Program-made: the position numbers and the translations under genes | Notes under the pieces: generated by a model | Told to the model about the DNA's origin: nothing | Databases searched by the model: none | The model's input: the letters and a program-made list of their open reading frames with translations, nothing else | Part shown: positions 781 to 51,677 of the stretch, one piece after another | How the letters are laid out: every line of letters begins with the position of its first letter | Numbering within the stretch: the first letter of the stretch is position 1 | DNA from: a virus | Length of the DNA stretch: 64,000 bases | Virus record (IMG/VR): IMGVR_UViG_3300027659_000014 | Location: 1 to 64,000 of that record | Direction: 5' to 3' (one strand)

Positions 781-1602
781 TTACTTTATGAAATTTGTTA
801 CGTAACCCAATGCCCCCCAATGACCAACACCACTTGGGGTATCTGTTGATCCAGAGACAACTCCTTTACCTCTAACTTTAACAGGACCTGTTATAACATT
901 TTTATTTGGAACACCCATAGAGACCGCATCGTTTACAGAACTAAATACACCTGAAGATTTTGCATAAGATTCCACAATAAATAACCTATCTTTGTATTTA
1001 ATTTCTTTTGCAACCTGTGAAGAATATTTACACCCCGCACTAAATAAAACAACATAAGACTCAGGGTTTTTTCTAATAGCATCTAAAACTCCCTGTAGAT
1101 TATTATATCTAAATCCTATAATAGTTTTGTTTAGTAATTTATTTTTTAATACTTTAACTTGTTGGTCTATATTAAGATCTCCAGATCTTGTATCTAAACC
1201 GCCCATTAATATAACATCACCACTTGACACTTCAACTTGTGAATTATCTTCTTTTTCAGGATCATCAACTTTTTTAATTACATCAATTGATTTAGAGTTA
1301 GTATTACAAAAATCAGGTGTTATCCACTCAACTTTTTTATCCTCCAAATCTTTTAATTTACTTTTTGTATCATTACCAACAATACCATCATCGTCAATTC
1401 CCATTTTTCTTTGGAACTCCTGAACACAAGATTTTGTTTGTCTACCAAATTCACCATCTTTATGAATACCTAATAATTCTTGTAATGATCCGACCTCATC
1501 ACCGTTTGATCCTATTTTTAAGATAGATTCTATATTAGATACGGATTCAGTTATTATCCCCATCATTTCTTTTATTCTTTGTATGTTTTCTATTAAATTC
1601 AT
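781..1602 (-). CDS. Peptidoglycan-binding domain protein with leader peptide and uncharacterised C-terminal domain
   Basis: LKIGSNGDEVGSLQELLG...DGEFGRQTKSCVQEFQRKMGIDDDGIVGNDT is a PG_binding_1 signature. N-terminus is MNLIENIQRIKEMMGIITES. Confidence 0.8.
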   Translation of the reverse strand: MNLIENIQRIKEMMGIITESVSNIESILKIGSNGDEVGSLQELLGIHKDGEFGRQTKSCVQEFQRKMGIDDDGIVGNDTKSKLKDLEDKKVEWITPDFCNTNSKSIDVIKKVDDPEKEDNSQVEVSSGDVILMGGLDTRSGDLNIDQQVKVLKNKLLNKTIIGFRYNNLQGVLDAIRKNPESYVVLFSAGCKYSSQVAKEIKYKDRLFIVESYAKSSGVFSSVNDAVSMGVPNKNVITGPVKVRGKGVVSGSTDTPSGVGHWGALGYVTNFIK

Positions 1603-1610
1603 ATTCTTTA

Positions 1611-2213
1611 CTAATATCTTACTTTATTTTTAACAATATTAACAATATTTAAATAAAAATCTTCAAGATCTCTTTCTCCCGTTTCAATTTGATTAATAAC
1701 CTCATCTCTACGATGAAGAGTATTATTAACAATAAACTCAATCATTTCTTCATCAGTAATATTTTCAGGTTTAACTGGTTCAGGAATACAATCGTGGTCT
1801 TTATTAAATGTATCAACATCATCAAAATAAAAACCTGTTTCACCAACTATTTGTTCAAACTTTGGAATCATCGCATCTTCATACCATTCCTCTATTATAC
1901 TCATAACAAAGTTTTTTCTTGCATTAAAAATTTTCATTATTTTTTCCACTAATGTTTTTGATATCATTAATGTGCCATTAACAAATTTACCGTCTTCGTA
2001 ATAGTATATTGCGGTAATAACTTCTTTACCGTTAACACACCAATCCTCAGCAAGATTACCATAATTACGAGATTTTTTACCTATTGTTCTATTACCATCC
2101 TCAATATAATCATCAAGAAATAATGTGATAACTTTTCTAAGACTATCTGTAGATTTGATGTATCTTCGTCTTTCGTCTTCTTCTTTTAATATTTTTTTAA
2201 TTATATCTCTCAT
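1611..2213 (-). CDS. Hypothetical protein with IKKILKEE leader
   Basis: 200-aa ORF starting MRDIIKKILKEE. Confidence 0.7.
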   Translation of the reverse strand: MRDIIKKILKEEDERRRYIKSTDSLRKVITLFLDDYIEDGNRTIGKKSRNYGNLAEDWCVNGKEVITAIYYYEDGKFVNGTLMISKTLVEKIMKIFNARKNFVMSIIEEWYEDAMIPKFEQIVGETGFYFDDVDTFNKDHDCIPEPVKPENITDEEMIEFIVNNTLHRRDEVINQIETGERDLEDFYLNIVNIVKNKVRY

Positions 2214-2216
2214 TTT

Positions 2217-2894
2217 TTAAAATTCTATAGTAATTGTATTAGGAAGTTTAGGTATATGGTTAAAATAATCATCACAACTTTTAGGAATACTATCACCATC
2301 GTCATATTTATTATCAATTAATAAAACATAAATGTCCATCCCTTTGAATGTTTTATGTAATTTTTCATTAATGAATTTTTCGTATCCTTCCAAAGTATAT
2401 TTTTTATCAGTAACAATTACAACTATATAAAATTTATTATGTCCCGCTTGAACGGAAACAAAACAAGGTTTATAAATTGACCTATTTAAATATTCACCAC
2501 TTACCCCCTCAATATACTCAGCAATAAATTCAATCTTTTTTAAATCTGAAGGAGTTACGCTTTTTGTGTTAGATTTTGTATAGTTAAAATCACCTAAATC
2601 CTCAGATTCATTTATAAATTCATCACAACTTAATTGTGCATTATCAAAGTAATCTAAAAACTCATCAAAATATCTTTCTCTTATGAAATGATGTAAATCA
2701 ATTGCAATATCATCGTCTCCTAAATTGTTATTATTTACAAAGTTTTCTACCACCCAATTAGTTATCTCCCTGAAGTACATATAAAATTTATCTTCATCGT
2801 AATCACAAGGTGTTACATCATGGTAAACCTCATCAACAAGATCATCAATTTGTTTCAGTCTCCTAATAATAAACGGATTAAAACGTTCTTTCAT
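2217..2894 (-). CDS. Hypothetical protein
   Basis: 225-aa ORF; TATTTATA motif immediately upstream (2899-2906 on minus strand). Confidence 0.7.
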   Translation of the reverse strand: MKERFNPFIIRRLKQIDDLVDEVYHDVTPCDYDEDKFYMYFREITNWVVENFVNNNNLGDDDIAIDLHHFIRERYFDEFLDYFDNAQLSCDEFINESEDLGDFNYTKSNTKSVTPSDLKKIEFIAEYIEGVSGEYLNRSIYKPCFVSVQAGHNKFYIVVIVTDKKYTLEGYEKFINEKLHKTFKGMDIYVLLIDNKYDDGDSIPKSCDDYFNHIPKLPNTITIEF

Positions 2895-2936
2895 ATAGTA
2901 TAAATATATTTAAAAATTGTTTTAACAGAATAGTAT

Positions 2937-3335
2937 TTGATTATGTTATACGTGGTTATTATAATTGTAATTATGAACCTTGAGAGACGATTTCATTTAT
3001 TCCAAGATTTCTTAATTGAGATGAGTAACGGTGTGGTATATAATGTTAGATCTATCAATCTTAAAAAACTTGATAAACCAACGGTAAAATATGAAGGTAA
3101 ACTATATAGTATCTCGCATGAATTGTCCCATAAATTTTCCAATTTTAATATGTTAGTTGTAACAGATTATGTATTAACAATTGATGTTATTTGTAAATGT
3201 CATATAGATAAGATATGGTGTGATGAATTGGTGAGTATGTTTCGTGGAACATTTAGTTCTTTATTACCACAAAATTGTAAGATTGATATCAATCCATTAA
3301 CTAATGAAGTTACCCCAACTAATTGGTACGCTTAA
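2937..3335 (+). CDS. Hypothetical protein (start possibly at ATG 2973)
   Basis: ORF fills the gap between convergent genes. Confidence 0.5.
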   Translation: MIMLYVVIIIVIMNLERRFHLFQDFLIEMSNGVVYNVRSINLKKLDKPTVKYEGKLYSISHELSHKFSNFNMLVVTDYVLTIDVICKCHIDKIWCDELVSMFRGTFSSLLPQNCKIDINPLTNEVTPTNWYA

Positions 3336-3886
3336 CCCCATTGAACATAGACATCATAAAATTCCACACCAAATGAGTTCGCAGTTGCCACAACAAAATC
3401 TTGTATCATATCTTGTATTTCTGAACTAAGTTCTAACCAAAGATCATCCTCAATTGATTCGTGATCAGTTAAATCATATTCCTCACCGTTTGTCATTAAA
3501 GTAACACTACCGTGAGTAATATCAAAATCAACAAATATCTCAACTTGATCATTTTCTTCTCTCACAAAAACATATGGTAATTTAAATGAAAAATCATACC
3601 CACCTGTATGAATACCCTCATCTTCCATATCGTCTGTGGTTAATTCTTTTTTACTAGTTAGATATCTTTCAAAATCTTTTCTAAGGTCATAAACATTACC
3701 CATATATTCTCTGTAGTAACCCATTATGTCCCTTTGTTTTGTACTAAAACCAAGCCTCTTTACCATTTTCTTATCGTATCTTGGCGTATCACCTAATGAT
3801 TTCTGTTCATCCCAAAGATCAAAGAAATATTTCTTTACAGGATTAACTTTTTCTTCCCTTAATATTCTTCTGATTAAATCTTTCAT
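3332..3886 (-). CDS. Hypothetical protein with leader, paralog of 4111-4695
   Basis: Likely start MKDLIRRILREEKVNPVKKYFFDLWDE at 3886, preceded by TATTTATA. Confidence 0.75.
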   Translation of the reverse strand: MKDLIRRILREEKVNPVKKYFFDLWDEQKSLGDTPRYDKKMVKRLGFSTKQRDIMGYYREYMGNVYDLRKDFERYLTSKKELTTDDMEDEGIHTGGYDFSFKLPYVFVREENDQVEIFVDFDITHGSVTLMTNGEEYDLTDHESIEDDLWLELSSEIQDMIQDFVVATANSFGVEFYDVYVQWG

Positions 3887-3913
3887 ATAAATTATAAATA
3901 TCATAAAAAAACA

Positions 3914-3938: not shown

Positions 3939-3946
3939 CAATGGAA

Positions 3947-4106: not shown

Positions 4107-4110
4107 CAAA

Positions 4111-4695
4111 TTAATTTAATATATTCACCACAACATCTTCAATATCTGCACCATATTTTATTCCCATATCAACAATAAAAGATTCTACTATTGTTTTAAG
4201 TTCATCTTGAACATCAAAATAAGAAACCATATCATCAATTTCATTATTACCCCTTGAAATATCATATCTTTTTTGATAATAATTATCCTCAATATCATTA
4301 TACTCCGACATATTAATATAACCATCAAGTATGTCCATATCAGCCAAAATTTCTTTATCTTCACGATGTTTATTAATACGAACATTACTCAACTTAAATG
4401 TAAATTTAAAATCCTCATCATCCCATTGTCTGAAGTTTAATTCGCTAGACTTAAATGTTTTATTTGACAAAAAATCTAATAGGTTTTTTTCACCAATCTC
4501 TTTACCTCCAATGTATTCAATATAGTAATCGTGTATTTCATTTGATTTTTTTTTAAATCCAAGTTTACCAATTAAACTAATGTCAATTGTTGGATATTCC
4601 CCTTCGGATCTTATTTCATCCCAATGGTCAAAGAAGAACTTTTTTATTGGGTTCATTCTTTCTTCCTTCAATATTTTTCTAATTAGCTCTTTCAT
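4111..4695 (-). CDS. Hypothetical protein with leader, paralog of 3332-3886
   Basis: MKELIRKILKEERMNPIKKFFFDHWDE; shares LGF, FxFKL and DxDIxxG segments with its paralog. Confidence 0.75.
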   Translation of the reverse strand: MKELIRKILKEERMNPIKKFFFDHWDEIRSEGEYPTIDISLIGKLGFKKKSNEIHDYYIEYIGGKEIGEKNLLDFLSNKTFKSSELNFRQWDDEDFKFTFKLSNVRINKHREDKEILADMDILDGYINMSEYNDIEDNYYQKRYDISRGNNEIDDMVSYFDVQDELKTIVESFIVDMGIKYGADIEDVVVNILN

Positions 4696-6539: not shown

Positions 6540-7913
6540 CTAATTTTTTTCAAACCACTCTCTCATTTCATCTCTGACAGAATTTAATGCTTTTTTAGCG
6601 TAATGTATAATAGCAGGAAAATAGTTTGTATTGTAGAAATCAATCAGTTGTTCAATTGTTTTAAATTTTTGATCTATATCCATAAAGTTATGGATCTCAA
6701 CATCCTCCTCATATTCTTCTATATCATTCCTATAAAAGTCTATGTCCACAGGTAGTATATTGTTTCCATCCCAAAACATTGTGGCATAACCTACTAATGC
6801 TTCAGTTTTATTTTTACCAAAATAAATTGTAAAATCCCATGTGGATGATTGACGATCAATTGCAACATTTATTTCAACCTCATCATCTTTATAATTAGAA
6901 TTCAATTCTTTTTTATCAAAGATATAATAAGTTAATATATCATTACATTGTTGAGGTGTAAATGATTTTATTTTATTTAAACTTAACTGATCATCATCAG
7001 ATGAAATAAAATCAGGTTTAATAAGTTTATTTGCAGCATTAATCGTCAAACCAAACTTTTTTATTGTGTCATAAACTCCAATCTTATCAACAGATTTTGA
7101 AATCATTTCTTTTGTTCTTTCAAAACTATTTTCAGATAATAATTTTTTATCATTAAACATTAACTTTTTAATTTCATTAACATATCCCGATAAAGGATTT
7201 TTTATATCCAATGGTGAGTTCAATATCCAATCCTCAATTTGAAAAAATCTTTTTAAAATCTGATTAATAGATTCATCCATAAATTCTTTTGGTGGTGTTG
7301 GACTTTCAGTTATTTCATCATTACTATATGATAACTTTTCAGTAACCTGTTTGTTTGCCAATCTATAAATTTTTTGAAATAACTCATCATCATTATTTTC
7401 AAACGCCAATGGGATTTCAAATCTTAACCCAATAGTGTAACTATATCTTGGGTTTTCACTTCTAGATCCTCCCATTATATTTTTATAATAATAAAGTTCA
7501 ATAACAGTATTATATTGACGGAAATTAAGTTCAGTTGGGGGGTCTGTTTTGTAACTAACATAACCAACATTTTCATTGTAAGTCACATCTTGAAATTGTA
7601 TTCTATCATTTCCGTCTCTTTCACTAGTAACAGATGTTTTAAGATATTTTAGAAAGGGTATTCTTTTTTTAAGGTATTCTTCAGTAACTTTAATTGATTT
7701 ATCTTCAATTTCATTAACCATATTATAGTTCTTCCAAAACTTATTTAATTCAGTTTTATTATATTTTTTTGACTTATTATCCCAACCACAAGAATGACAA
7801 AGATTAGGATGTTTATCCTTTTTTTCTTTATCCCAAGAGTGTTTACACTTAGAACACTTTATTTTACCTTCTAAAAGTAGTTTTGATTGTTCTTCAGTTA
7901 TAATAATTTTCAT
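6540..7913 (-). CDS. Modular protein: leader, Zn-ribbon, further uncharacterised domains
   Basis: MKIIITEEQSKLLLE then CSKCKHSW...CHSCG; internal VNEIKKLM...LLSE linker. Confidence 0.7.
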   Translation of the reverse strand: MKIIITEEQSKLLLEGKIKCSKCKHSWDKEKKDKHPNLCHSCGWDNKSKKYNKTELNKFWKNYNMVNEIEDKSIKVTEEYLKKRIPFLKYLKTSVTSERDGNDRIQFQDVTYNENVGYVSYKTDPPTELNFRQYNTVIELYYYKNIMGGSRSENPRYSYTIGLRFEIPLAFENNDDELFQKIYRLANKQVTEKLSYSNDEITESPTPPKEFMDESINQILKRFFQIEDWILNSPLDIKNPLSGYVNEIKKLMFNDKKLLSENSFERTKEMISKSVDKIGVYDTIKKFGLTINAANKLIKPDFISSDDDQLSLNKIKSFTPQQCNDILTYYIFDKKELNSNYKDDEVEINVAIDRQSSTWDFTIYFGKNKTEALVGYATMFWDGNNILPVDIDFYRNDIEEYEEDVEIHNFMDIDQKFKTIEQLIDFYNTNYFPAIIHYAKKALNSVRDEMREWFEKN

Positions 7914-9985: not shown

Positions 9986-10960
9986 ATGGAATATTTAATT
10001 AAAAAAATATTAAAAGAATATGAGGAGGAAGAGGAAAAAGCGTTTCCAAAAAATGTTTCTTTATTTTTTAAATTTTTAAATGGTTATAGAAAAGGAGGAA
10101 ATGTAACACTAAATGCCTTAGGTAATTTTATGTTGTCTAACATGAAAACTTTTGGTTTAAAACCTCAAGAATATCAACACTATTTAAATCTTTATACTCA
10201 AAATTTTAGAGAAGATGGTCAATACATTTTAACCAAAAAAAATGAATTAAATGCCGAATATAATCAATCAAAACCAAAACGAACTTCTAATTCAAAAGCT
10301 TCAGATTTAGTAAGGGATTTACAACCATTTAAAGGATCAAATTTAGAGGGTAAGTGGAAACAGGATTATAAGGGTGATTGGGCATATGTTGTATATTCTT
10401 GGAATTGGTATCCAATATATATGTATAAATATAAAAAATGGTTTGAGGTTGATAATCGATATTCCTCATCAACAGGTAAACATATGTCAGCCACAAGTCC
10501 TGGAAGGTATAACAGTCAGTTAAGAAAAACAATGTTCATTGTTTCACAAGATGAAATGTCTAATCTTTTAAACGGTCAACAAACATCAGAAAATATAATT
10601 AAAAATAAAAATAAAAAATTTATTGACATTGTTGGAAAAGAAATTCATACCTTAAAACAAGTTAGATTAGGTTGGGACCCAAGAGTTAGAATATCATTTA
10701 ATTTTATGAAAGTAAGTATGGAAGAAAATGATCCTCGTATTGATGTTGAAGTTATTAATGTTGATAAAATGGACAATAATAAAATAGATAGATCTTCAGG
10801 TAACTTTTTAAAAGGTGAAATGGTTGGAGTTTCAAAAGAATATATCACCGATTTAATGAAAGAATACATCTCAAGATATTCTTCCTCTATATTAGGAAGA
10901 GATGTTTCAAATGAAATTAGTGTAATCGTAACTTACTTAGATAATCCAAATATAAACTAA
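9986..10960 (+). CDS. Hypothetical protein with LIKKILKE leader
   Basis: MEYLIKKILKEYEEEEE; TATTTATA at 9974-9981. Confidence 0.75.
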   Translation: MEYLIKKILKEYEEEEEKAFPKNVSLFFKFLNGYRKGGNVTLNALGNFMLSNMKTFGLKPQEYQHYLNLYTQNFREDGQYILTKKNELNAEYNQSKPKRTSNSKASDLVRDLQPFKGSNLEGKWKQDYKGDWAYVVYSWNWYPIYMYKYKKWFEVDNRYSSSTGKHMSATSPGRYNSQLRKTMFIVSQDEMSNLLNGQQTSENIIKNKNKKFIDIVGKEIHTLKQVRLGWDPRVRISFNFMKVSMEENDPRIDVEVINVDKMDNNKIDRSSGNFLKGEMVGVSKEYITDLMKEYISRYSSSILGRDVSNEISVIVTYLDNPNIN

Positions 10961-15582: not shown

Positions 15583-16920
15583 TTAATTTGATAATGGTGC
15601 TTTAATTTTTTCGTGTGATCTATAATTACTTAATTGTATATCTTCTTCTAATAAACATTTACAAAAATTGTCATTAGTAAATGAATTAAATATTTTTATT
15701 GCATCTAATAGTCCTATACCACACTCACCTGATTCAGTTGGCCAAAACTCTGTGTTGATGTTTAGGGTTGGTAGTGTATATGGTTCTCTTGTTCGGGTTG
15801 GTACATTCCATTGGTCAATTTCAGAATGTGATAATGTGTTACTGTCTCCACCATTATATATTTGATTAAACATTTCTTGAGTAACCATTTCTCTTCTTTC
15901 ATCTAAATCTAATTCTCTACCAATCTGTTCTTTTGCTTGTTCAACGTGATTCAAATACAAATGTGTATCACCCAAGTTACCAATCAATTCATCAGGAACC
16001 ATATTAACTGACTTGGCAATAATTTCCAATAACAATCCGTAAGACGCAATGTTAAATGGTAAACCTAAGAATGTATCTACTGAACGTTGATTCCACATTA
16101 AAGAGATTGCTCTGGTTGGAATATTAAATTTGTCACATTCTTTATGAACCTCATTATCTAAATCTATACTAACATTACTTTTTATAAAATCAAACAGTTC
16201 ATTTGAATCCAATAAATTAATTTGTTTAGTGTTTTTATACGTGATTCTTTCACTAGCACTCAACTCTCTTGTATAAACTTGAAATCCATAATGACAAGGT
16301 GGAAGAACCATTTGGTCTAATTTACCCACATTCCAAGCATTAACCATTAATCGTCTTGAGTCTGGATTTGTTTTAAGGTCGTTGATTAAGATTGATATTT
16401 GGTCTATAACCTTTTCCCCAACTAATGTATGTAGACCATTGTGTCCTATTGTTACATTTTCACCTGTACCCCAACTTCTCCACTGTTTACCATAAATTTT
16501 TCCAAGGTCACCCCACTTCTTAGCAAACTCATCATCTGTTTTGATTTTGTTGATGAAGTCTTCTTGTGTTTGGTATTTTACTAATTGACCAGCTTGTGAA
16601 GAAATTAAATCAGAGTAGTTTTCTGATTTATAGTCTGGGTTATATATATAATTCTTATAAGCATCACCATCCCAAATATGACAACCATTATCAACAAGGA
16701 ACTTGATGTTTGTATCACCACGTAAGAACCACATTAGTTCTGTAACGATTGATTTCCATGCCATCTTCTTAGTTGTAAGTAATGGAAACCCCTCACTCAT
16801 TTTATGTCTAATCTGTCTACCAAACACTGAAAGAGTACCACCGTTTCTTGTTTCTTTTTTTACACCATTATCAAAGATGTCTTGTAGGAGTGATTGGTAT
16901 TGTTTATCTAGGTTATTCAT
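15583..16920 (-). CDS. thyA: Thymidylate synthase (with insertions)
   Basis: FPLLTTKK, ELMWFLRGDTN, YGKQWR, SRR...AWN, LPPCH, QRSVDTFLGLPFNIASY, GDTHLYLNH. Confidence 0.95.
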   Translation of the reverse strand: MNNLDKQYQSLLQDIFDNGVKKETRNGGTLSVFGRQIRHKMSEGFPLLTTKKMAWKSIVTELMWFLRGDTNIKFLVDNGCHIWDGDAYKNYIYNPDYKSENYSDLISSQAGQLVKYQTQEDFINKIKTDDEFAKKWGDLGKIYGKQWRSWGTGENVTIGHNGLHTLVGEKVIDQISILINDLKTNPDSRRLMVNAWNVGKLDQMVLPPCHYGFQVYTRELSASERITYKNTKQINLLDSNELFDFIKSNVSIDLDNEVHKECDKFNIPTRAISLMWNQRSVDTFLGLPFNIASYGLLLEIIAKSVNMVPDELIGNLGDTHLYLNHVEQAKEQIGRELDLDERREMVTQEMFNQIYNGGDSNTLSHSEIDQWNVPTRTREPYTLPTLNINTEFWPTESGECGIGLLDAIKIFNSFTNDNFCKCLLEEDIQLSNYRSHEKIKAPLSN

Positions 16921-17275
16921 TAATAATCTCGTTTAATCGTTTAATTTCTGATATCACATCATCACCCAATTCAATTTTGGACATCATTGTTAAATCCACT
17001 ACTTGAGAATAAAGTAAGTTTATTAGTTGTTGCTGAGCCGCCATTTTTGAGGACATCATTTGTGGAAAGTTTTGTAGTTCTTCTTCTGTCATTGTTTTCT
17101 CTTTTGTTATTGTATATTCATCAATCATCCACTTTATCTTATCAAACTCACTTTGAATGTCATCTTTTAGTCTATTTAATCGAGTATCTGCCGTTATTTT
17201 TTCTTCTCTATCTTTCATTAGTTCTTTACGTTTTTCAGGATGTCTCCACTTACCATAGTTAGACCATTTGTTCAT
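16913..17275 (-). CDS. Hypothetical protein with C-terminal QVVDLTMMSKIELGDDVI module
   Basis: Likely start MNKWSNYG at 17275, giving a short overlap with the upstream gene. Confidence 0.6.
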   Translation of the reverse strand: MNKWSNYGKWRHPEKRKELMKDREEKITADTRLNRLKDDIQSEFDKIKWMIDEYTITKEKTMTEEELQNFPQMMSSKMAAQQQLINLLYSQVVDLTMMSKIELGDDVISEIKRLNEIINE

Positions 17276-17582
17276 AACTTTCCAATTGATTTTCGTTGAA
17301 GATGTGTAATAGTCCATATTCGTCCATTTCACCTATCACCCGTATTTCACCACCGATTGTTTCAAATACACCTACGATTGTACAAGGAAATTTATAACCT
17401 TTTGGTTTGTGTACCTTATCACCAACCTTAAATTTTGGTTCTGTTTGATTAATAATACCGTTTAGTCGTTTAATCTCAGAGATCACATCATCTCCCAATT
17501 CAATCTTGGACATCATTGTTAGATCCACCACTTGATTCGTAAGGACATTGATTAACTCGTCTTTTGCTTGTTCTCTATTCAT
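17259..17582 (-). CDS. Hypothetical protein: N-terminal QVVDLTMMSKIELGDDVI module plus SH3/KOW-like domain
   Basis: KFKVGDKVHKPKGYKFPCTIVGVF C-terminal domain. Confidence 0.65.
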   Translation of the reverse strand: MNREQAKDELINVLTNQVVDLTMMSKIELGDDVISEIKRLNGIINQTEPKFKVGDKVHKPKGYKFPCTIVGVFETIGGEIRVIGEMDEYGLLHIFNENQLESYEQMV

Positions 17583-29741: not shown

Positions 29742-29762
29742 ACCTTACATATTTATATATAT

Positions 29763-31310: not shown

Positions 31311-31329
31311 TTCTTTACTAAATCCTGTT

Positions 31330-31599
31330 TTATTTTTCGATGTTTTCAATGTGGTGTTGGATGTACCATAGGGCTTTTCTGAGGTCTTCAAGTTCTGTAT
31401 CTTTTCTTTTTTTTCCTGCACGGCTAATATATTTTATTGCATTTCCTAAACTAAACCCCAAATCCCAAGCATCAATAACTTTTATTGCTTCGTATTCATT
31501 ATTTTTTCCCCCATAATGTTGAGGATGATTTACTTGTTCTATTTTTATCGGTGGACACTGACAAAGTCCGGTTCCACCACATACACATTCTTTATCCAT
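31330..31599 (-). CDS. DUF3310 family protein
   Basis: VNHPQHY...EAIKVI...FSLGNAIKYISRAGKK...EDLRKALWYI. Confidence 0.85.
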   Translation of the reverse strand: MDKECVCGGTGLCQCPPIKIEQVNHPQHYGGKNNEYEAIKVIDAWDLGFSLGNAIKYISRAGKKRKDTELEDLRKALWYIQHHIENIEK

Positions 31600-32723: not shown

Positions 32724-32725
32724 TT

Positions 32726-33508
32726 TTAAAAATTTAATTCTTCTTTGTTTTTTTTATAATTTTCAATCATTTGAGTTTGATTAATGTAGGTAATCAATTT
32801 TCTTTTAAACAATGGAAGAAGCGTTTCATTTATTGGGAAATTCGCTTCACATAACATTTCATACAAAGGTAATTTTGATATATTATCTTGATTCCATTGA
32901 CTAAATGTATTTATAATTTTTGTAATTGTCAAATTATTTTTTTTTTCAGAATAAATTAAATTTACTAATGTTTTACTTTCAGGTGATTTTTTATTTACTT
33001 GTTTAACATTAAATTCCCAAACATAAAACAAATTATCTTTTGAGTCTAAATAATAAAAATATCCTTTTTTTTGTAAAACCTCATTTTTGTTTTTTTTTAT
33101 TCTTAAAATTACACTATCAAACACTATTTCCCAAACAGATTTAGCAATGTTAAAATATTCTAACATTCTTGGAGCACTATATGTTAATATTTTGTTAAAT
33201 TCTTCTTTTTCCTCATTGTTTAATATTGGGATGTCTTTTATTTTTAAATCTTTTACTAATAATTCATCATCTATTGTTGTAAATTTTTTATTAGTATACA
33301 TTATTTTTTTATCTCTGATTAAATTTTGAAGATTTGCCACGTGTAATGACAACTCAATGAATCCAGGATAGAGTTCCATATTATCTAATTTTTCCCCCAT
33401 TTTTTGAAAGTAAGATAATAATTTATACTCTTTGTGTTCTTGATCAATGGGTTTTTCAAACATCCATTCAGTGTTCATTAAAAATTCTATTTTTTTCTTT
33501 TTTTCCAT
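32726..33508 (-). CDS. Hypothetical protein
   Basis: 260-aa ORF (PIDQEHKEYKLLSYFQ). Confidence 0.65.
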   Translation of the reverse strand: MEKKKKIEFLMNTEWMFEKPIDQEHKEYKLLSYFQKMGEKLDNMELYPGFIELSLHVANLQNLIRDKKIMYTNKKFTTIDDELLVKDLKIKDIPILNNEEKEEFNKILTYSAPRMLEYFNIAKSVWEIVFDSVILRIKKNKNEVLQKKGYFYYLDSKDNLFYVWEFNVKQVNKKSPESKTLVNLIYSEKKNNLTITKIINTFSQWNQDNISKLPLYEMLCEANFPINETLLPLFKRKLITYINQTQMIENYKKNKEELNF

Positions 33509-33549
33509 TACACATAAAGATAATAATATTATTTCATTCTGTAAAGGTA

Positions 33550-35082
33550 TTAGTCAGTTCTAAATACAATATAGGTATTTGAATTTATATTAACTTCTTG
33601 GTAATCCCCATCATAATGACTTATTACGCTATAGTCAGATTCATCAATTAAGTCACGTAGTAAACTTCTTGTATTAACAAAATTATCATAGTTCATACCA
33701 TAATCATCCAACCAAGATATCGGGTCAGACTCTATCTCATCTCTTTTTTCTTCCATAACTCGTTCAATATCATCATCACTTAAATCTCCATCAGGATTCT
33801 CTTCAATTTCTTCAATTTCAGAATCTATTTCTTCCGCCCTATTCTCAATTTCTTCAATCCTTGATTCATTATCCGATTCATGTTCTCCATCTTCATCTTC
33901 ATCTTCATAAGTTACTGACTCAACCTTTTTATTGTTTTGGTAAATTTGCCATTTATCGTCAGACCATTCAACAACTAATAAATTGTTCATATAATCTTTG
34001 AATTTAAAGTATTTCATACTTTCTATTCCTTCTTCAATAAGAGGAGATCTAGCCCCATTTGAAATTAAATAATTTTCTATCTCAAGAGATTTTTTTTCAT
34101 TTTTAAGGTTTATTATTTCTTGATCTTGTTCTTTACTAGTTTCTTTAGAAATATCATAATCTTCATAATTTTCATAAATATCGTCACGAATCGAATCTTC
34201 AAAATACTCATACACATCTTCACCATCAATGTGATTACTTAGTGTGCTTTTATCAAAATTATTTAAATCATTTACCATATCTTCATAATATTCTTCAATG
34301 GAGTCATCCACCTCACCTTCAGTACCAACAGCATAAGTATTTCCATTTGTATCACCATGAATTGATTTAAATACTGTCATTTTATAGTGAGAATGCCGAT
34401 CTTCGGGAACTAAACCATATTGATCATTATCTTTTTCCTTTAAGGCGTCAATATTTTCTTCTAACTCATCTCTTTCAGTATATAAATCATCTAAAATTTC
34501 ATCATCTTCCTCATTATCAATTTTTTCTTCAAGTTCCACCATTTGTATTTCTAAATCTTCTAATTCTTCACGTTCTCGTCCATCTAAATATCCAATATCA
34601 TTTTGTTGAACCATATAGTCAAAAACTGCGTTTGCCATCTCACTTATTTCATCTGTATTTTTTATATTCCATTCGTCATTTATTCTTCTTTCATTAGCGT
34701 CTTCCCTTTCTTGTTTTAATCTTTTTTTCTCAATTTCATCAGCATATGGTGTCATATGATACGCACCAAGTTTTTCAAATTTTACCCCGTCTAAGTTTTT
34801 TATTCCGGTATAAGGAATATCTAATTGTCCACTTACCGTTAAATCACCTAAACTAGTAATTTGTCTTAAACCATTTAATTTCAAATTACCATTAACTCTT
34901 ATTTTTTTACCTTTAAACATTGGTAATCTTGAAATAACTTTTGCATTAAAATTAACAGATACCAACAATTTATGATATTGTTCCGGGGTAATTTCAAAGT
35001 AATCATTTTCAGATTCTTCAACAATAATATTTTTTATTAAATTTATTAATTTGTTTTCTGTAATTTTTATAATTTTTTTCAT
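33550..35082 (-). CDS. Acidic coiled-coil protein with leader and short LRR-like segment
   Basis: MKKIIKITENKLINLIKNIIVEE; GNLKLNGLRQITSLGDLTVSGQLDIPYTGIKNL. Confidence 0.7.
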   Translation of the reverse strand: MKKIIKITENKLINLIKNIIVEESENDYFEITPEQYHKLLVSVNFNAKVISRLPMFKGKKIRVNGNLKLNGLRQITSLGDLTVSGQLDIPYTGIKNLDGVKFEKLGAYHMTPYADEIEKKRLKQEREDANERRINDEWNIKNTDEISEMANAVFDYMVQQNDIGYLDGREREELEDLEIQMVELEEKIDNEEDDEILDDLYTERDELEENIDALKEKDNDQYGLVPEDRHSHYKMTVFKSIHGDTNGNTYAVGTEGEVDDSIEEYYEDMVNDLNNFDKSTLSNHIDGEDVYEYFEDSIRDDIYENYEDYDISKETSKEQDQEIINLKNEKKSLEIENYLISNGARSPLIEEGIESMKYFKFKDYMNNLLVVEWSDDKWQIYQNNKKVESVTYEDEDEDGEHESDNESRIEEIENRAEEIDSEIEEIEENPDGDLSDDDIERVMEEKRDEIESDPISWLDDYGMNYDNFVNTRSLLRDLIDESDYSVISHYDGDYQEVNINSNTYIVFRTD

Positions 35083-39367: not shown

Positions 39368-41317
39368 TTAAATTGATGTGATTCCTTTGCAATGTTGTTT
39401 CATATTATCGGGGAATTCTACTAAGAAAAAATCTTCATCTATTGTCATATATTTTCGTAAAACTTCCGGAATTATAATATCTGGATTAGATCCCTCAATT
39501 GAAACAAATTCTAAACAGGTTAAATTTACCATTGATTTGGGTAACCTTTCTAACTCAATGTTATTAGTTAAATTTAAAAATGTTAAATTTTTACATTCAC
39601 CAATACTTTCAGGTATACTTTTGATCATATTATCAAGAACCAAAGTATCTAAATTTTTAAATTTACCAATTGATTCTGGTAAATCTAACAGTATTGGGGA
39701 TGATCCTTTATTTTCAATATTAATGAATTCAATATTTTCTGATAGGGATTCAAAAAATTCTTCAAATCCAAACATCACAATAAATTTAGATGGGTCATCT
39801 TTAGGGTACTGTAATATTACTTTGTTATCCGCAAAAATTGTGTTTAGTTCATTTTTATATTTTCGTTTTAAATCTCTAAAATATGGTCTCATTTCTTGAG
39901 ATAATATTACTGCAATATCGTTTTCTGTTACTTCTTTTAAAGTTTTTGTTAGTATTTTTTCTTTTTTCTTAGAAACATAATATGTCATTGCTGCAGGGGC
40001 TAACCTCTTAACCATGTTACCATCTAATTCATTTCCAAGACCAATATATTTTTTTTGTAATTCTTCAGGTAAATTACCAAATATTTCATCACCATTAGTA
40101 ATATGTTTAAAATCAGGACCTCTTAATTCCATCCATAATTCAACCTCATCTACTGATCCTAATTCTTTAACAGGATCAGAGGTTGTAAGATTAAGACTTT
40201 TATATTTGGTTAGTTTTTTTGTGTCTTCATCAGTAAATGGTTTTGGTACAAGATAATCTTCCTTACCTTCAAGACTAGGAACTTTTTGAGTTATTTCTCT
40301 CCAAGATATTTCTTCTCCTCCCGCAAATCGACCGGAATTTGATCTATCCGCTAATTTCATTCTTCCGTACTTATCAACAAGTATAACAACCGCATAATTT
40401 AAATCAGATTCTTCAAGGTTTTTACTAATAACATAATACAATGTTAAGTTTTGATTTAATCTATAATTGTAATAATAATTACTTGATCCTTCCCATGATG
40501 TACACCATCTTCTATCTGGAGCATATTTTTTTCTAATATTAATACACTTATGTTTTTGATCAGGAGCAAAAATTAATATGTTATCATCTTCATATGCAAT
40601 GTCCACGTCACTCACATCAATTTCAGGCATACTATATTCATCTTCTCCAGCCGGAGTATAACCATCAACAATGTGTTCAAATTCATCAAAAGACATAAAT
40701 GAACTTAATTTTGTGTTTAATGGTATTAATAAAAAATTAGTGACAAATCTTTTAACTCTTGGTAGTATAACTGTAAGTGGATCCTCATCAGGAATTTCTT
40801 TTGCGAATTTCTCAGTCATTCTTTTTGTTAATGCATTTTCTCCGTTCTCATTAAATCTATCAAAATATTTTCTAACAAGACTATCAAGTTGTGATGGGTT
40901 TAAATCTGTAACCGGATTTTTAAACGCTTTATCTTCAGGAAACAATGTTTTCAACTCAAAATATTTTTTAATATTTTGTTTTGTTAGTAGTAAATCCGTT
41001 CCTTCGTATTTTGTAACAAATTCTTGAGCAAAACTATCAAGATCTTTTTTAGTTTGTTGTTTTGTGGATTTATCCTTAATTAACTGTTTTAACTTAATAT
41101 AAGTGTGTCTAAAAATATCCTTATCTTCGTTAGCAAAACCACTTTTAAATCTTTCAAAGTCAGAAATAACTTTTTTTATATCATCCTCACTATCGTCTGT
41201 TTCTAATGAAAATTTATCAACTAATCGTTTAATTGTTGATTCAGGATATTCTAATAATATTTTTTGTATATTTAGATTTTCATTAATTATCTTTGACAAA
41301 ATTTTTACTAATTCCAT
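39368..41317 (-). CDS. Large protein with leader, WCT-motif domain and C-terminal leucine-rich repeats
   Basis: MELVKILSKIINE...ILLE; RRWCTSW...YYNY; LPESIGKFKNLDTL / IPESIGECKNLTFLNL / LPKSMVNLTCL. Confidence 0.8.
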   Translation of the reverse strand: MELVKILSKIINENLNIQKILLEYPESTIKRLVDKFSLETDDSEDDIKKVISDFERFKSGFANEDKDIFRHTYIKLKQLIKDKSTKQQTKKDLDSFAQEFVTKYEGTDLLLTKQNIKKYFELKTLFPEDKAFKNPVTDLNPSQLDSLVRKYFDRFNENGENALTKRMTEKFAKEIPDEDPLTVILPRVKRFVTNFLLIPLNTKLSSFMSFDEFEHIVDGYTPAGEDEYSMPEIDVSDVDIAYEDDNILIFAPDQKHKCINIRKKYAPDRRWCTSWEGSSNYYYNYRLNQNLTLYYVISKNLEESDLNYAVVILVDKYGRMKLADRSNSGRFAGGEEISWREITQKVPSLEGKEDYLVPKPFTDEDTKKLTKYKSLNLTTSDPVKELGSVDEVELWMELRGPDFKHITNGDEIFGNLPEELQKKYIGLGNELDGNMVKRLAPAAMTYYVSKKKEKILTKTLKEVTENDIAVILSQEMRPYFRDLKRKYKNELNTIFADNKVILQYPKDDPSKFIVMFGFEEFFESLSENIEFINIENKGSSPILLDLPESIGKFKNLDTLVLDNMIKSIPESIGECKNLTFLNLTNNIELERLPKSMVNLTCLEFVSIEGSNPDIIIPEVLRKYMTIDEDFFLVEFPDNMKQHCKGITSI

Positions 41318-42351: not shown

Positions 42352-42507
42352 ATGAAAACTGAAGCAACACAAGTAACCGGATGTAAAAAATGTGGACAAT
42401 CGCCAAGTAAAACACAAAAATTTGTTTTTATTACTGGAGCAATAATGTTTTTATTGACAATATATGGTTTAGTTTCTTTAATATATGATATTAAATCACT
42501 ATTTTAA
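42352..42507 (+). CDS. Small CxxC plus TM protein
   Basis: Likely start MKTEATQVTGCKKCGQ after TATTTATT; C-terminal TM. Confidence 0.55.
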   Translation: MKTEATQVTGCKKCGQSPSKTQKFVFITGAIMFLLTIYGLVSLIYDIKSLF

Positions 42508-43430
42508 CTTCTATTGTATTTAATATATTGATTTATTAATAAATCACCATTATGTTGGTTTTTATACCCTTTTCCTTTAACTCTTAATGGTGTTGATGTA
42601 TCAACATTATTTGGGAATTTAACATTTATTTTTCCATCTGGATGTGGAACATCAAATGATCCTCTTTTTAAATCATCAAGATTTAAAAAAGCACTATATA
42701 TAAGATTTGTTCCTAATTTTTCAAAGTTACCCTCATTAGTTGTTTTAACTCTAATAACCAAATTACCATATCCCCCGTTTCTATAATCACCAAGTCCTTG
42801 TAATCTTAAAAACTGACCATCATCAATTCCATGTGGTAGTTGGATCTCGATTGTTTTAATCTCATTTTTTGTTCCTTGTCCCCCACAAGCATAGCAAGCT
42901 GCTGTTGTTATTTTACCAACACCATTACAAGTATTACACGCTACTTGGACTATCTGTATAAACATTCCTGAACCCATTTGTTTTACAACAAATCCTTTTC
43001 CATTACAAACATTACATGGTTTTTTCTCTCCCCCATTTCCATTACATGGAGGACATTTATCTTTTCTGTTATATGTTATACTTTTTTTACCCGCTAAGTA
43101 TGATTCCAATACACCAATATTTATATCAATTATGGTGTCGTGAACTCTATTTTGTGAATTACGACCACCAAACATATTATTCATAATGTCATTCATTGAT
43201 TGACCTCCAAAACCGTTCATGTTAGAAAATGGGTTATTTCGTTGGTTGTTGTATTGTGATCTTTTATTTTCGTCTCCAATAGTATCATATGCAGTTGAGA
43301 TTTTTTTAAACTTTTCCTCATCCCCACCTTTATCGGGGTGATTTTCTTTAACTAAATTCCTATAAGCTTTTTTAATTTCGTCTTGAGTTGCACTTTCTGT
43401 AACTCCTAACACATTATAATAATCTTCCAT
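42504..43430 (-). CDS. dnaJ: DnaJ co-chaperone
   Basis: J-domain with HPD, four CxxCxGxG repeats, C-terminal domain; TATATTTG promoter at 43463-43470. Confidence 0.93.
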   Translation of the reverse strand: MEDYYNVLGVTESATQDEIKKAYRNLVKENHPDKGGDEEKFKKISTAYDTIGDENKRSQYNNQRNNPFSNMNGFGGQSMNDIMNNMFGGRNSQNRVHDTIIDINIGVLESYLAGKKSITYNRKDKCPPCNGNGGEKKPCNVCNGKGFVVKQMGSGMFIQIVQVACNTCNGVGKITTAACYACGGQGTKNEIKTIEIQLPHGIDDGQFLRLQGLGDYRNGGYGNLVIRVKTTNEGNFEKLGTNLIYSAFLNLDDLKRGSFDVPHPDGKINVKFPNNVDTSTPLRVKGKGYKNQHNGDLLINQYIKYNRS

Positions 43431-45879: not shown

Positions 45880-47094
45880 TTATTGAGTCTTTTCTTTGTA
45901 TCCCATTAACGATTTCATTCTGTCAAACTCCTCTTTCAATTTACTTTTACCACCTTTTTTATTTTTTAATGGTATTTCATCATATACTGGAGAAGGTACT
46001 CTTCCGTATGATTCATCTTTCCATTTTGCCAATTGGTCATCTTCAAAATATTTTGAAAATTTATCGTTAACTCCAGTATTTTCAGCATTTGCCCATTCTT
46101 GGTTGTTACCATTAGTAGAACTTCCTTTTATTTGTTTTTCAATTGTTTCTTTTTTAGGTGGTTTTCCGTCGTAATCAGGAATATTCTGTCCCGCAACTTC
46201 CACATTAAAGTCAGTTCCTTCATCATCAATTTCATAAGCCATTTTATCCATTTTAGCCAATTGACCGTTACCTTTTGGAAAATGTTTTGGCTTGGTATTA
46301 AATTTCTCTTTAGATCCACTTTTAGTATAATCTAACATTTTTTTAGAAAATTCTTTCATGTAATTTTCATTTTCTTTACCAGATCCTTTATGTGCTTTTT
46401 CATAAGCTTCCAAACCTGCTGGTGTTTTTCCTTTTTTTATATTACTTTTTTCTTTTTCTTCAATAATAATATTTTCTATCAGATTAATAATCTCGTTCTC
46501 TGTAAACAATTCAGACCCATGACCAGAATTTAACCTATATAAAACATTATTATTTTCTTCCAAGGAAGAATTATCAGTATATTCTTTATTACCAAGTTTG
46601 AATTTTCCACCTTTTGGTGTTTGTCTTAATTTATTCGTGAATGAATTTCCTTCCGCAGTTTCATCTTCTTCCATGTAAGATTTATCACCACACTCCATAC
46701 ATTCACCTTTATTCTCTTTTGTCTCTCTTTTCTTTCTTAAGAGTGTAAAATCTTCTTTATCAATTCTATTATTTTTATTTTTATCTATATTTTTTTGTTT
46801 ACCAAATAATCTTTCGGTTATTTCTTCAATATCAGAATCACTTAATTTATTATTATTTCTATAACTCTTACGAGTTTCTAAAACCTCACTATTTTCTTTA
46901 TATCCACATGATTCACACGCTTCTCCTTCTCTAATTTCTCCACCGCATGATTCACACATTTCTCCTTCAACATAGTCAAATGAAGTTCCAGGTTTATTAA
47001 ATTTTAATTTTTCCATTACTTCTTTTGCTTTATCCTCTAAAGTTTCATTAAGAATTTTTTTTAATAAAACATTATAATAATTGTTATTTTTCAT
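45880..47094 (-). CDS. Charged low-complexity protein with multiple xxE leader-like motifs (possible head core/scaffold)
   Basis: LLKKILNE, LFTENEIINLIENIIIEE and LKEEFDRMKSLM motifs; CxxC pairs; TATTTATA upstream. Confidence 0.65.
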   Translation of the reverse strand: MKNNNYYNVLLKKILNETLEDKAKEVMEKLKFNKPGTSFDYVEGEMCESCGGEIREGEACESCGYKENSEVLETRKSYRNNNKLSDSDIEEITERLFGKQKNIDKNKNNRIDKEDFTLLRKKRETKENKGECMECGDKSYMEEDETAEGNSFTNKLRQTPKGGKFKLGNKEYTDNSSLEENNNVLYRLNSGHGSELFTENEIINLIENIIIEEKEKSNIKKGKTPAGLEAYEKAHKGSGKENENYMKEFSKKMLDYTKSGSKEKFNTKPKHFPKGNGQLAKMDKMAYEIDDEGTDFNVEVAGQNIPDYDGKPPKKETIEKQIKGSSTNGNNQEWANAENTGVNDKFSKYFEDDQLAKWKDESYGRVPSPVYDEIPLKNKKGGKSKLKEEFDRMKSLMGYKEKTQ

Positions 47095-48543: not shown

Positions 48544-48546
48544 GTT

Positions 48547-49526: not shown

Positions 49527-50118
49527 TTTTTAAATATTTATTAAAAATTTCAAAATTAAAGGCCGGACTAACATCAGTAAAATCACTATCAAAATTACTT
49601 TTAGTTACAATACCTTCAAATTTTTCTATACCGTTTATTTTTGTATTATGTTCCACACTTTTTAATGGGATATTAGTTTCTTTGGTTAACTTAACACACA
49701 ATTTTGAGGTTAAAATAATTTGTTCCTCAGGATATGGTTGCCAAAAAAAATAATCTCTCCATGTTTTATTAAAAACCTTTTGTTTATAAATATCACCAAT
49801 CCAATTAATGTGATAATTTTTTAATGGTTCTTTTTCTAACCAACCTAAATTTTCCAAACAAACAATTACAGAGTTTCTGTTTATAGATGATGTTGTGTTA
49901 TAATTAGTATATTCATCATTGTCCAATAACTGAAGAACTTTACCATCTCTTGTTACAATATAGTTAGGAATTTTATCATATTTACCATTATGTCTATATT
50001 TTAATGATTGTAAAAAATCATTTATGTTTCTAGACGTATTAGTGAGTATAATTTGTGTTTTGTTTTTATTTTTTTTCTCTGATCTAAAATTTCCGTATTT
50101 TATTATTTCATCAATCAT
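49519..50118 (-). CDS. N-acetylmuramoyl-L-alanine amidase (Amidase_2)-like protein, Zn ligands apparently degenerate
   Basis: QIILTNT...NYIVTRDGKVLQL...NRNSVIVCLEN.G...YPEEQI...LC..L...NIP...DVSPAF. Confidence 0.7.
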   Translation of the reverse strand: MIDEIIKYGNFRSEKKNKNKTQIILTNTSRNINDFLQSLKYRHNGKYDKIPNYIVTRDGKVLQLLDNDEYTNYNTTSSINRNSVIVCLENLGWLEKEPLKNYHINWIGDIYKQKVFNKTWRDYFFWQPYPEEQIILTSKLCVKLTKETNIPLKSVEHNTKINGIEKFEGIVTKSNFDSDFTDVSPAFNFEIFNKYLKND

Positions 50119-51208
50119 TTGTTTTAGTATATCTTAAAACTTTATTTTGTGTGGTTGTATTTACGGTGGTTAGTCCTGTACTACCATATTCTATATTTGA
50201 TAATTCAATAATTTCAGGTTCGACTTGGGGGGTGACTTGGGGGGTATAATGCGTGGTATGATGTGTTAAATAACTTTCAGGAATCTCAATCTCATCATGT
50301 ATGGTATCATGTATGGTATCTTCTTTGTGAGGGACACCAGTGTCCCCCTCTAAATTTTCTGTGAATTTTAACAGAGGGACATCCGTGTCCCCCTGTGAAT
50401 CTTCGTCTTTTCTTTTTCCTTTAAATGCTTGGTTTGTTGCAATAACTAACGTAATTGCTAATGGATCAAAAACAAAGATCAAAATTAAAATAAAAAGATT
50501 TGCGGTTCGTTTAATATCCCAATCAAGTAGTTCACTAACATACTTTAAAGCTCCCAACTCACTTCCCGAAATTTCTTTTGATTCCATGTTTAAGATATTA
50601 ATATCAAGTTGGGTGATACTATCATTCATACTATCAATTCTTTTTGCTATTGTGTCTCTCCTTACTTGTGCTTGTGATAGTTGAGATTCAAATAATTTTC
50701 TATTACCGTCGTTGGCTCTTGTAATTACCTGTCCAGTTCTTCTATCCACAGATTGTGTTGTTGTATTATTAGATACCCCGTCTCTTAACTTAGTAATGTC
50801 TCCGTCTAAAATGTTTTTTTCTTTTGTTAATTCGTCTTTAACTTCTTCAAACCTTTTCTTTTTTACCTCAATATTTTTGACTTGTTTTTCGTTAATTTCA
50901 AGTTTTGCAATATTCCCTTGAAATCCTGTACTTAAAAGTCCGTATATTCCAAGTGAAGTTATTAAAGAAAGGGTCACAAGAGCAATGGACATATAAATTT
51001 TTAAAATTCCATATGTTTCTTTCCATTTGTCGTGAAGATATGTTGCAATTGCAATTTTAGATATCTCAAGAAATGATCCCATAATAATAACGGGTAATGC
51101 CACACCAACAAATACGATTGATAAACCAACAACACTATAATATGCTGCGGTTCCTGACAAACCCAAAGCACAAAATAATAAAAACCAAGGTAAAAATTTT
51201 TCTTTCAT
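50111..51208 (-). CDS. Multi-TM coiled-coil membrane protein
   Basis: AAYYSVVGL...MGSFLEISK...ITSLGIYGLLS, coiled coil, LIFVFDPLAITLVIA. Confidence 0.75.
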   Translation of the reverse strand: MKEKFLPWFLLFCALGLSGTAAYYSVVGLSIVFVGVALPVIIMGSFLEISKIAIATYLHDKWKETYGILKIYMSIALVTLSLITSLGIYGLLSTGFQGNIAKLEINEKQVKNIEVKKKRFEEVKDELTKEKNILDGDITKLRDGVSNNTTTQSVDRRTGQVITRANDGNRKLFESQLSQAQVRRDTIAKRIDSMNDSITQLDINILNMESKEISGSELGALKYVSELLDWDIKRTANLFILILIFVFDPLAITLVIATNQAFKGKRKDEDSQGDTDVPLLKFTENLEGDTGVPHKEDTIHDTIHDEIEIPESYLTHHTTHYTPQVTPQVEPEIIELSNIEYGSTGLTTVNTTTQNKVLRYTKTND

Positions 51209-51257
51209 AATAATTCTAATATATTTATAAATACTAATATAAGGTATTTATATAATT

Positions 51258-51677
51258 ATGTCACTACTTAGAGAAACAATACGTAAAGTTTTAATCTTAG
51301 AAAAGAAGATTGCTGAGATCCAAGCAAAACTTACTGTTACCATGAATTTAAGATACCAACAGGTAAATGTACCTGGAATGAAGACCCACGCTGAAATACG
51401 AAAAAAAAGAGATTTTTCAAAAAGTGGTGATATAATTAGAGATTATGATATCTTAAATTCAGTAAAAAAAGTAAAGGATGATATAGTACAATATATTGTC
51501 ATTGGTGAGTTATATGATGGTGTTGAGTTTGTAATTAAAGATGAATCAAGCTTACTTAGTATTGCAATTAGAATAGAAGAAGTTAATCCTTACGAATTTA
51601 ATCTTTTTATTAAAACCGTTATGAGGGATGCTAATTTTTATGTTGGTAGAAATCAACTAGTTATTACCGCAAAATAA
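51258..51677 (+). CDS. Hypothetical protein with leader
   Basis: MSLLRETIRKVLILE; TATTTATA at 51245-51252. Confidence 0.7.
   Translation: MSLLRETIRKVLILEKKIAEIQAKLTVTMNLRYQQVNVPGMKTHAEIRKKRDFSKSGDIIRDYDILNSVKKVKDDIVQYIVIGELYDGVEFVIKDESSLLSIAIRIEEVNPYEFNLFIKTVMRDANFYVGRNQLVITAK

Follow-up and report, generated by a model that had tools for sequence, protein, structure and literature searches.

Phage proteins that are injected into the host act before phage gene expression, and those of T4 include anti-defence and host-takeover factors. To our knowledge, finding injected proteins has so far required the virion proteomics of a cultured phage. In T4, the internal proteins (IPs) have propeptides of 10-19 residues that are capsid targeting sequences (CTSs), and the prohead protease gp21 cleaves after the motif L/I-x-E, a processing that is blocked when Asp replaces the terminal Glu (PMC9026906). 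Similarly, six residues are removed from T4 Alt at the site ITE-6 (PMC5694885). The IPs found in T-even phages are diverse and have only the targeting sequence in common (PMC3012670), and their variable gene arrays have been interpreted as anti-defence cargo (PMC3012670, PMC9026906). In the phiKZ-like giant phages, cleavage by the protease follows a Glu, and the propeptides are believed to direct proteins to the prohead (PMC5694885, PMC9026906). Here, we analysed a viral DNA stretch of 64,000 nucleotides (the window), which is the first 64 kb of the 106-kb IMG/VR record IMGVR_UViG_3300027659_000014 (GC content, ~28%; estimated completeness, 36%). A preliminary description of the window had listed eleven proteins that begin with one shared leader ending in hydrophobic-hydrophobic-x-Glu, and had suggested that this leader loads them into the phage head. 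We found that these leaders (hereafter tags) are real and much more general than the window implies, and we consider it rather probable that they are T4-type capsid-targeting and processing tags, greatly expanded and carried by fast-evolving cargo proteins.

Families of N-terminal tags

All eleven listed N-termini are present in the sequence at the reported starts, and ten of them carry real N-terminal tags, the one starting at 51258 being doubtful. Upon clustering of the N-termini, at least four families emerged from the supposedly single leader, for which some boundaries had probably been drawn too long. Family A reads M[KR][DE]LI[KR][KR]IL[KR]E (members starting at 2213, 3886, 4695, 9986 and 47094); family B reads MK[IL][IL]ITE, often followed by SQY..L.E (7913 and 26594); family C reads MNL.ENI.RI..MMG.I[TN]E (1602); family D reads MKK..[RK][LI]TE..L..[LI][IV]K..I.E; and an F-like family reads M....L..[IL]I[TN]E, the D/F members (35082 and 41317) having tags that end in IINE or IIVE. 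In family B, the 7-mer MKIIITE is probably what can be exchanged, a further, optional site lying near residue 16.

The same tags begin more than 200 open reading frames (ORFs) on IMG/VR contigs, all estimated to be pieces of ~300-kb phages. A degenerate DNA pattern for tag A gave 91 matches at 67 IMG/VR loci, with ~41 distinct bodies, where ~0.005 would be expected by chance (estimated from base composition); nearly all of these matches coincide with the first ATG that follows a stop, and tandem arrays are frequent among them. The corresponding pattern for tag B was found at more than 120 IMG/VR loci among the matches listed. A search of 596 Gb of genome sequence from bacteria and archaea gave no match for the tag A pattern and two for the tag B pattern, one of which is a phage fragment in a Flavobacterium metagenome-assembled genome (MAG). 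Of the 401 ORFs of G002, a complete relative (322 kb) with a 77%-identical baseplate protein, ~40-45 are tagged. As first noted for ThyA, DnaK (Hsp70) and glutamine synthetase, core enzymes carry no tag, and neither do DnaJ and the Rad50-like protein. A Sec, Tat or lipoprotein signal peptide was ruled out, the tags being charged and amphipathic, without the h-region of ~10 or more residues that in such signals stands between a basic n-region and the signal peptidase site; true lipoprotein-type signals occur on other genes of the window, such as 27704-28153.

The terminal glutamate, the prohead protease and the capsid protein

By analogy with T4, we propose that the tagged genes would be expressed together with the head genes, and that the short amphipathic N-terminal peptide would dock the protein on the scaffold core of the assembling prohead. 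Once the shell is closed, a gp21-type (S77) protease would cut after the Glu of the tag-ending [I/L]-x-E, thereby freeing the mature cargo inside the head, and the cargo would exit with the DNA at the next infection. Docking to the core, cleavage, presence in the virion, injection and late timing of the tagged proteins are inferences by analogy; the reading of the tags as a signal for a T4-type head protease is supported by the following lines of evidence.

First, the tag endings (ILKE, IITE, LITE, IINE and IIVE) are all [I/L]-x-E and match, as originally pointed out, the motif L/I-x-E at which the gp21 protease of T4 cleaves (PMC9026906). In the T4 record, IPII and IPIII begin with MKTYQEFIAE↓A and the propeptide of IPI ends with ...STITE↓A (the arrow stands directly after the Glu). 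Second, the terminal Glu is nearly invariant: among 142 non-redundant B-like N-termini not selected by the search pattern, Glu occupies residue 7 in 131 cases and Asp in 2 (Glu and Asp make up 7.1% and 6.5% of the proteome), and 11 of the 11 exceptions retain a second [IL]-x-E near residue 16. Third, the gp21-type prohead protease (Peptidase_S77, Pfam PF03420), a gene that the preliminary description had proposed to look for, is missing from the present fragment and occurs in all near-complete relatives. It was found in five of the five large A-tag records and in three of the three B-tag records that are at least 86% complete, and its overall frequency in B-tag records (18/48) is close to the ~16 expected from their completeness at one copy per genome. 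In G002, the protease gene lies at 242014-242739 of C1, on the minus strand. Fourth, the capsid proteins of six relatives all have ...LINE↓A without variation; after it come a Ser/Thr-rich stretch that varies and then a conserved PIVRRVF block. This block aligns with T4 gp23 from residue 86 onward, and an upstream ENQA aligns with the T4 ENQE. We take the maturation site of T4 gp23 to be ...SFLTE↓A, at residue 65/66. That position was set by comparing the 456-residue mature chain (PDB) with the 521-residue precursor. We predict that LINE↓A is the capsid maturation site, in register with the gp23 maturation region; it stays a prediction and not a mapped site because the direct alignment of the G002 capsid protein N-terminus with T4 gp23 is weak (E = 0.01-0.2), and it is supported by its conservation in the six relatives. 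In addition, the N-terminus of the clade protease has ...GILIE↓E, an ILIE that resembles the LIE-9 site carried by gp21 (PMC9026906). A modelled complex between the G002 scaffold and the first 45 residues of a tagged protein scored 0.00; it was run with no controls and is not used as evidence.

As a side observation on the head genes, S77 proteases and capsid-protein-like genes each number two in the 269-kb record G019 (the IMG/VR record behind L110; completeness rating, 100%), at 31291-34973 and 233494-237944. The second capsid-like gene is 45% identical over its C-terminal part, and this doubling suggests either two sets of head genes or an assembly that is chimeric.

The tags could also be address or docking peptides for a target other than the capsid interior (for example the membrane, another late assembly or Hsp70/DnaJ), or pro-sequences that keep proteins inactive, with no packaging involved; we regard this as unlikely, yet as the best of the alternatives. 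DnaK-binding peptides have a hydrophobic core flanked by basic residues. Tag A has such a core with basic flanks, the tags are amphipathic, the phage encodes both Hsp70 and DnaJ, and cargo of the sigma-factor type could equally act inside the producing cell. However, a chaperone or membrane tag explains neither the near-invariant terminal Glu (E:D, 131:2), nor the module boundary exactly after it, nor the identity of the motif with the predicted maturation site of the capsid protein, and families B and C have no basic flanks.

The upstream motif and the codons of the tags

The motif TATTTAT, initially reported upstream of most leader genes or of the first gene of their run, in fact precedes every one of them in the window, or the first gene of its run. 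It is the most enriched upstream 7-mer in G002 (8-fold), and it precedes scaffold, protease, portal, tail and baseplate genes. As for its co-occurrence with the tags, which we had been invited to check, TATTTAT is found upstream of 45-50% of the tagged genes versus 16-18% of the others (p = 3e-4 in G002). It starts 11-13 nucleotides (nt) before the ATG of many tagged genes, versus 20-36 nt for head and tail genes (G002 L078-L094 and the window). The tagged genes may thus be transcribed as nearly leaderless mRNAs.

This spacing, which leaves almost no 5' untranslated region, is an argument for regarding the shared first codons as an adaptation that helps translation to start on late mRNAs whose leaders are very short, and not as a protein signal; the tags are also A-rich, and their Ile codons are skewed to ATA. 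We nevertheless judge this explanation very unlikely. Synonymous sites vary freely in the tags (AGY as well as TCN codons are used for Ser, all four codons for Thr, and both codons for Glu and for Gln), several unrelated peptide families replace one another, the head and tail genes that have the same upstream motif are devoid of tags, and selection on the RNA would not account for a conserved Glu that is almost never an Asp.

Exchange of tags and evolution of the tagged proteins

The tags are portable, as had been supposed: orthologous bodies (50-62% identical overall) carry tags of different families, and some homologues are tag-free. The ESKKD family has tag C in G002 and tag A in L016 (bodies 61% identical), the Acb1-like family has tag C or A (50%) and another family tag B or A (53%). 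Homology restarts right after the Glu of the tag, as seen in ...GLITE↓ESESKKD versus ...RILRE↓ETESKKD and, at a second junction, in MKIIITE↓NQQESIK versus ...KILKE↓ESLKQ. About 60 homologues of the sigma factor of the window, down to 45% identity, retain MKII[IL]TE, and the homologue P0066 (40% identical) lacks exactly the seven residues of MKIIITE. The tagged proteins evolve fast and vary between relatives, in line with the swappable set originally envisaged: their bodies average 34% identity to G002, versus 56% for the other genes, and a G002 homologue exists for only five of the eleven tagged proteins of the window, with the tags nearly unchanged.

Most tagged proteins are unannotated by Pfam and PHROGs. 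Those of the window that have domains are a peptidoglycan (PG)-binding protein, a sigma factor of the extracytoplasmic function (ECF) type, a multi-module protein with a Zn-ribbon and a protein with leucine-rich repeats (LRRs). In the relatives, the cargo comprises two Acb1-like proteins (Acb1 being directed against the cyclic-oligonucleotide-based anti-phage signalling system, CBASS), a superoxide dismutase (SOD), and EF-hand, LRR and L5-gp82-like proteins. The Acb1-like (2H phosphoesterase) bodies carry tag A or C, depending on the relative (L013, L027, L055 and L065, and 29610-30173 in G002); in the T4 record, the Acb1 gene (57B) adjoins ipI.

Internal [I/L]-x-E sites may separate cargo modules. 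In the 457-residue product of 6540-7913, an internal LLSE (residues 257-260; 7134-7145) opens the C-terminal module, which in the close relative L008 is a stand-alone gene that starts with MIISE and aligns from LLSE onward. In L048, the Zn-ribbon module is the only one in common with 6540-7913 and stands on another body. As this LLSE is the sole module junction found, the idea of a polyprotein rests on a single case.

Could the tags be a leftover of common ancestry, within large paralogous families, or a functionless recombination linker? Some of the small tagged genes that form tandem arrays are indeed paralogous (3332/4111; arrays in L012, L029 and L035), and the ITENK subgroup may be one family. 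We nonetheless give this explanation even less credit than the translational one. The tagged proteins were described as unrelated save for one paralogue pair, and BLASTP did link only 3332/4111; the tagged bodies include folds as unrelated as sigma factor, PG-binding protein, SOD and Acb1, and the tags are conserved far above the bodies. A recombination cassette acting at the nucleotide level was ruled out, and homologous recombination is unlikely because the tag DNA differs between genes at 8-9 of 36 positions.

Enrichment at N-termini

The enrichment at N-termini depends on how the motif is written. In its tight form, [ILVM]2-[KRNS][KRNE]-[ILV]2-x-(x)-E (a LIKKILKE-type core), it has seven matches in the 106-kb record (33,111 residues), all seven within the first 25 residues of a protein. 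In its loose form (hydrophobic-hydrophobic-x-E), it is found in 35 of 132 N-termini versus 143 of 1097 internal 25-residue windows, an enrichment of only 2.4-fold (p = 1e-4) that is not specific, and it also matches the small subunit of ribonucleotide reductase and thioredoxin; since it occurs on such housekeeping proteins, the loose motif alone is not diagnostic. The form [IL][ILV][TNKS]E is enriched 4-5-fold at N-termini. The regular expressions of the families matched 40 N-termini versus 2 internal sites in G000 and G002 (~132,000 residues), one further 'internal' match being a mis-called start, so that these scans revealed almost no internal copies of the tags. Similarly, when the 24-mers of G002 were compared, 107 N-terminal pairs scored at least 40, versus 3 internal pairs. 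The tags are real, strictly N-terminal, selected as peptides, virus-specific and interchangeable between families. Chance production by the K/I/L/E-rich composition of an AT-rich genome, which the ~2-fold enrichment of the loose motif and its presence on housekeeping proteins might suggest, has a negligible probability: it is refuted for families A-D by the tight motif being N-terminal in every case and by the excess of tag A matches over the chance expectation in IMG/VR with none in cellular genomes, and is possible only for 51258.

Arguments against packaging

Several observations weigh against the proposal that the tags direct proteins to the head. The motif [IL]-x-E is short, and about one in four 25-residue windows of this proteome contains it. 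Compared by eye, the tags have no sequence homology to the T4 CTS MKTYQEFIAE beyond the initial M-K, the hydrophobic spacing and [I/L]-x-E; the tag system would work like the CTS without being its homologue. The head module and the S77 protease are absent from this 36%-complete fragment, so that the link with the protease rests on the relatives, and a cultured member of the clade is absent among 50,697 phage records. Head cargo is not the obvious role for a sigma factor or a PG-binding protein, and at least 40 cargo types per genome are far above anything shown for T4. In families B and F, conservation runs beyond the first Glu (SQY..L and S-x-x-QIL, respectively), and part of family B (the ITENK group, of ~100-130-amino-acid proteins) may consist of true paralogues. 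The late-promoter role of TATTTAT is itself putative. Finally, since the Ile codons of the tags are biased to ATA (33 of 39, versus 33% genome-wide), some selection acts at the mRNA level too, and together with the TATTTAT spacing this bias leaves room for an added constraint on translation.

With these points in mind, we retain the T4-type targeting and processing tag as the favoured reading. A bolder version of it, which falls slightly short of what we would call probable and which we put forward tentatively, is a capsid-loading code of unprecedented scale that can be read from the sequence, in which at least four interchangeable families would load ~40 or more fast-exchanged proteins per genome into the heads of ~300-kb Bacteroidota phages for injection, including an ECF sigma factor, Acb1-like enzymes and polyproteins that are cut at internal [I/L]-x-E sites. 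If true, the injected proteome of uncultured giant phages would be predictable from sequence alone. Should the tags mark head cargo, dozens of candidate first-strike effectors per genome, among them a sigma factor and anti-CBASS-like enzymes, could be read from the metagenomes of a widespread, uncultured clade of giant Bacteroidota phages, and the interchangeable tags would offer short portable packaging signals for a system other than that of E. coli. The targeting principle of T4 would be widened from a five-protein curiosity to a general loading code.

The tagged genes of the window

Table 1. Tagged genes of the window (↓, position directly after the Glu that ends a tag or site; aa, amino acids).
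Coordinates	Strand	Protein	Tag family	Leader	Leader codons	TATTTAT
781-1602	-	PG-binding-domain protein	C	19 aa ending GIITE	1546-1602	
1611-2213	-	ORFan body	A	MRDIIKKILKE↓E	2181-2213	
3332-3886	-	paralogue of 4111-4695	A	MKDLIRRILRE↓E	3854-3886	directly upstream of ATG
4111-4695	-	paralogue of 3332-3886	A	MKELIRKILKE↓E	4663-4695	
6540-7913	-	three-module protein (Zn-ribbon, middle, C-terminal)	B	MKIIITE↓EQSKLLLE↓		
9986-10960	+	family A-tagged protein	A	MEYLIKKILKE↓Y	9986-10018	-12
26594-27154	+	ECF-type sigma factor	B	MKIILTE↓SQYSTLLNE↓		-11
33550-35082	-	510-aa ORFan	D	MKKIIKITENKLINLIKNIIVE↓E	35017-35082	
39368-41317	-	649-aa protein, C-terminal LRRs	F-like	MELVKILSKIINE↓N	41279-41317	
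45880-47094	-	404-aa ORFan	A-like	...NVLLKKILNE↓T	47044-47094	
51258-51677	+	139-aa protein, doubtful member	loose motif only	MSLLRETIRKVLILE↓K		

The PG-binding protein has a PG_binding_1 domain at residues 46-83; an 85%-identical orthologue retains the leader, and the PG-binding homologues in L021 and L030 begin at the domain, without a tag. The leader of 1611-2213 is nearly unchanged in homologues with body identities of only 27-30%. The true start of 3332-3886 is at 3886, and its product is 32% identical to that of 4111-4695. The sigma factor comprises Sigma70_r2 (residues 24-92) and r4_2. Further along the window, G002 homologues begin with MRDLIKKILKE↓Q for 9986-10960 (37% identical), with MSRKIRLTEEGLYRFIKTIVE↓Q for 33550-35082 (27% identical) and with MKITSVLSNLITE↓Q for 39368-41317 (a syntenic homologue; the LRR matches of this protein are weak and below the Pfam cut-offs), and that of 45880-47094 (36% identical) has ...NLVSKILNE↓T at the same position. 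The protein encoded by 51258-51677 fits none of the leader families, lacks homologues in both G002 and loci L006-L072, and has no Pfam match.

The phage clade, its host and other genes

The 106-kb record encodes T4-type baseplate wedge proteins (gp6-like and gp25-like). Its relatives, phages of 230-326 kb, have a head module of the T4 type, in which a gp23-like capsid protein is accompanied by a scaffold, an S77 protease and a portal. By an estimate from record length and CheckV completeness, the 48 B-tag records searched are all pieces of ~270-330-kb genomes. The contigs of the clade stem from freshwater sites. Searches of the 50,697 phage records gave no match by megablast with 20 kb of the window or by tblastn with one tagged ORFan, and tblastn with the sigma factor recovered only crAss-like sigma factors, which are distant and have no tag. 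The nearest cultured capsid protein is that of Flavobacterium phage immuto (41% identity). A literature search provided the T4 and giant-phage background and nothing on these tags or this clade.

TAnnTTTG is the box typical of Bacteroidota promoters (-7 box). It is enriched upstream of the non-late genes and marks another gene class, presumably an early one. Because of this enrichment and of the clade fragment in a Flavobacterium MAG, the host of the tagged phages is probably a Bacteroidota bacterium. That fragment, the 4-kb contig L216 (CAZSZH010000105.1), is a piece of the tagged-phage clade and comes from a MAG that bears the label uncultured Flavobacterium sp.; its presence there may be a weak hint to the host or a binning artefact.

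The window also encodes a full-length Hsp70 (DnaK; 23602-25458), a DnaJ with a zinc-finger domain (42504-43430), a glutamine synthetase-like protein (31599-32717) and a Rad50-like protein. Its thymidylate synthase (15583-16920; 445 amino acids) matches Pfam in two separate stretches and probably contains an insertion or an extra domain. The overlapping minus-strand ORFs 16913-17317 and 17259-17582 have in common a 41-residue stretch (80% identical), which suggests a direct repeat of ~120 nt or a frameshifted duplication.

Comparison with known systems

Similarly to the CTSs of T4 (IPI, IPII, IPIII and Alt), the tags are short N-terminal peptides (6-19 residues in T4, 7-22 here) that are common to otherwise unrelated, fast-evolving proteins, start with M-K, are amphipathic and end in [I/L]-x-E: FIAE, TITE and ITE-6 in T4 (PMC5694885); IITE, LITE, IINE and ILKE here. 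Likewise, the clade has a gp21-type S77 protease and a capsid protein with the same motif at its predicted maturation site. Unlike T4, which has one or two kinds of tag and five tagged genes, the clade uses at least four interchangeable families, on ~40 or more genes in G002, the one complete relative that was fully surveyed. Its cargo includes sigma factor, PG-binding, LRR, Acb1-like and SOD proteins, and possibly multi-module proteins; its host would be a member of the Bacteroidota, its genome is of ~300 kb, and its targeting and cleavage are putative.

The arrays of small, fast-changing genes with a constant N-terminal tag are reminiscent of the hypervariable IP loci of the T-even phages, from which they differ by their larger scale, their distribution over several genome regions, their several tag families and the swaps between orthologues. 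In the phiKZ-like giants (phiKZ with gp175, 201phi2-1, and SPN3US with gp245), a gp21-related protease also matures many inner-head proteins. However, cleavage there follows S/A/G-x-E or A-x-E, and most of the propeptides exceed 100 amino acids and are not common to several proteins, whereas the tags described here have the motif I/L-x-E and are short, stereotyped and common to many proteins.

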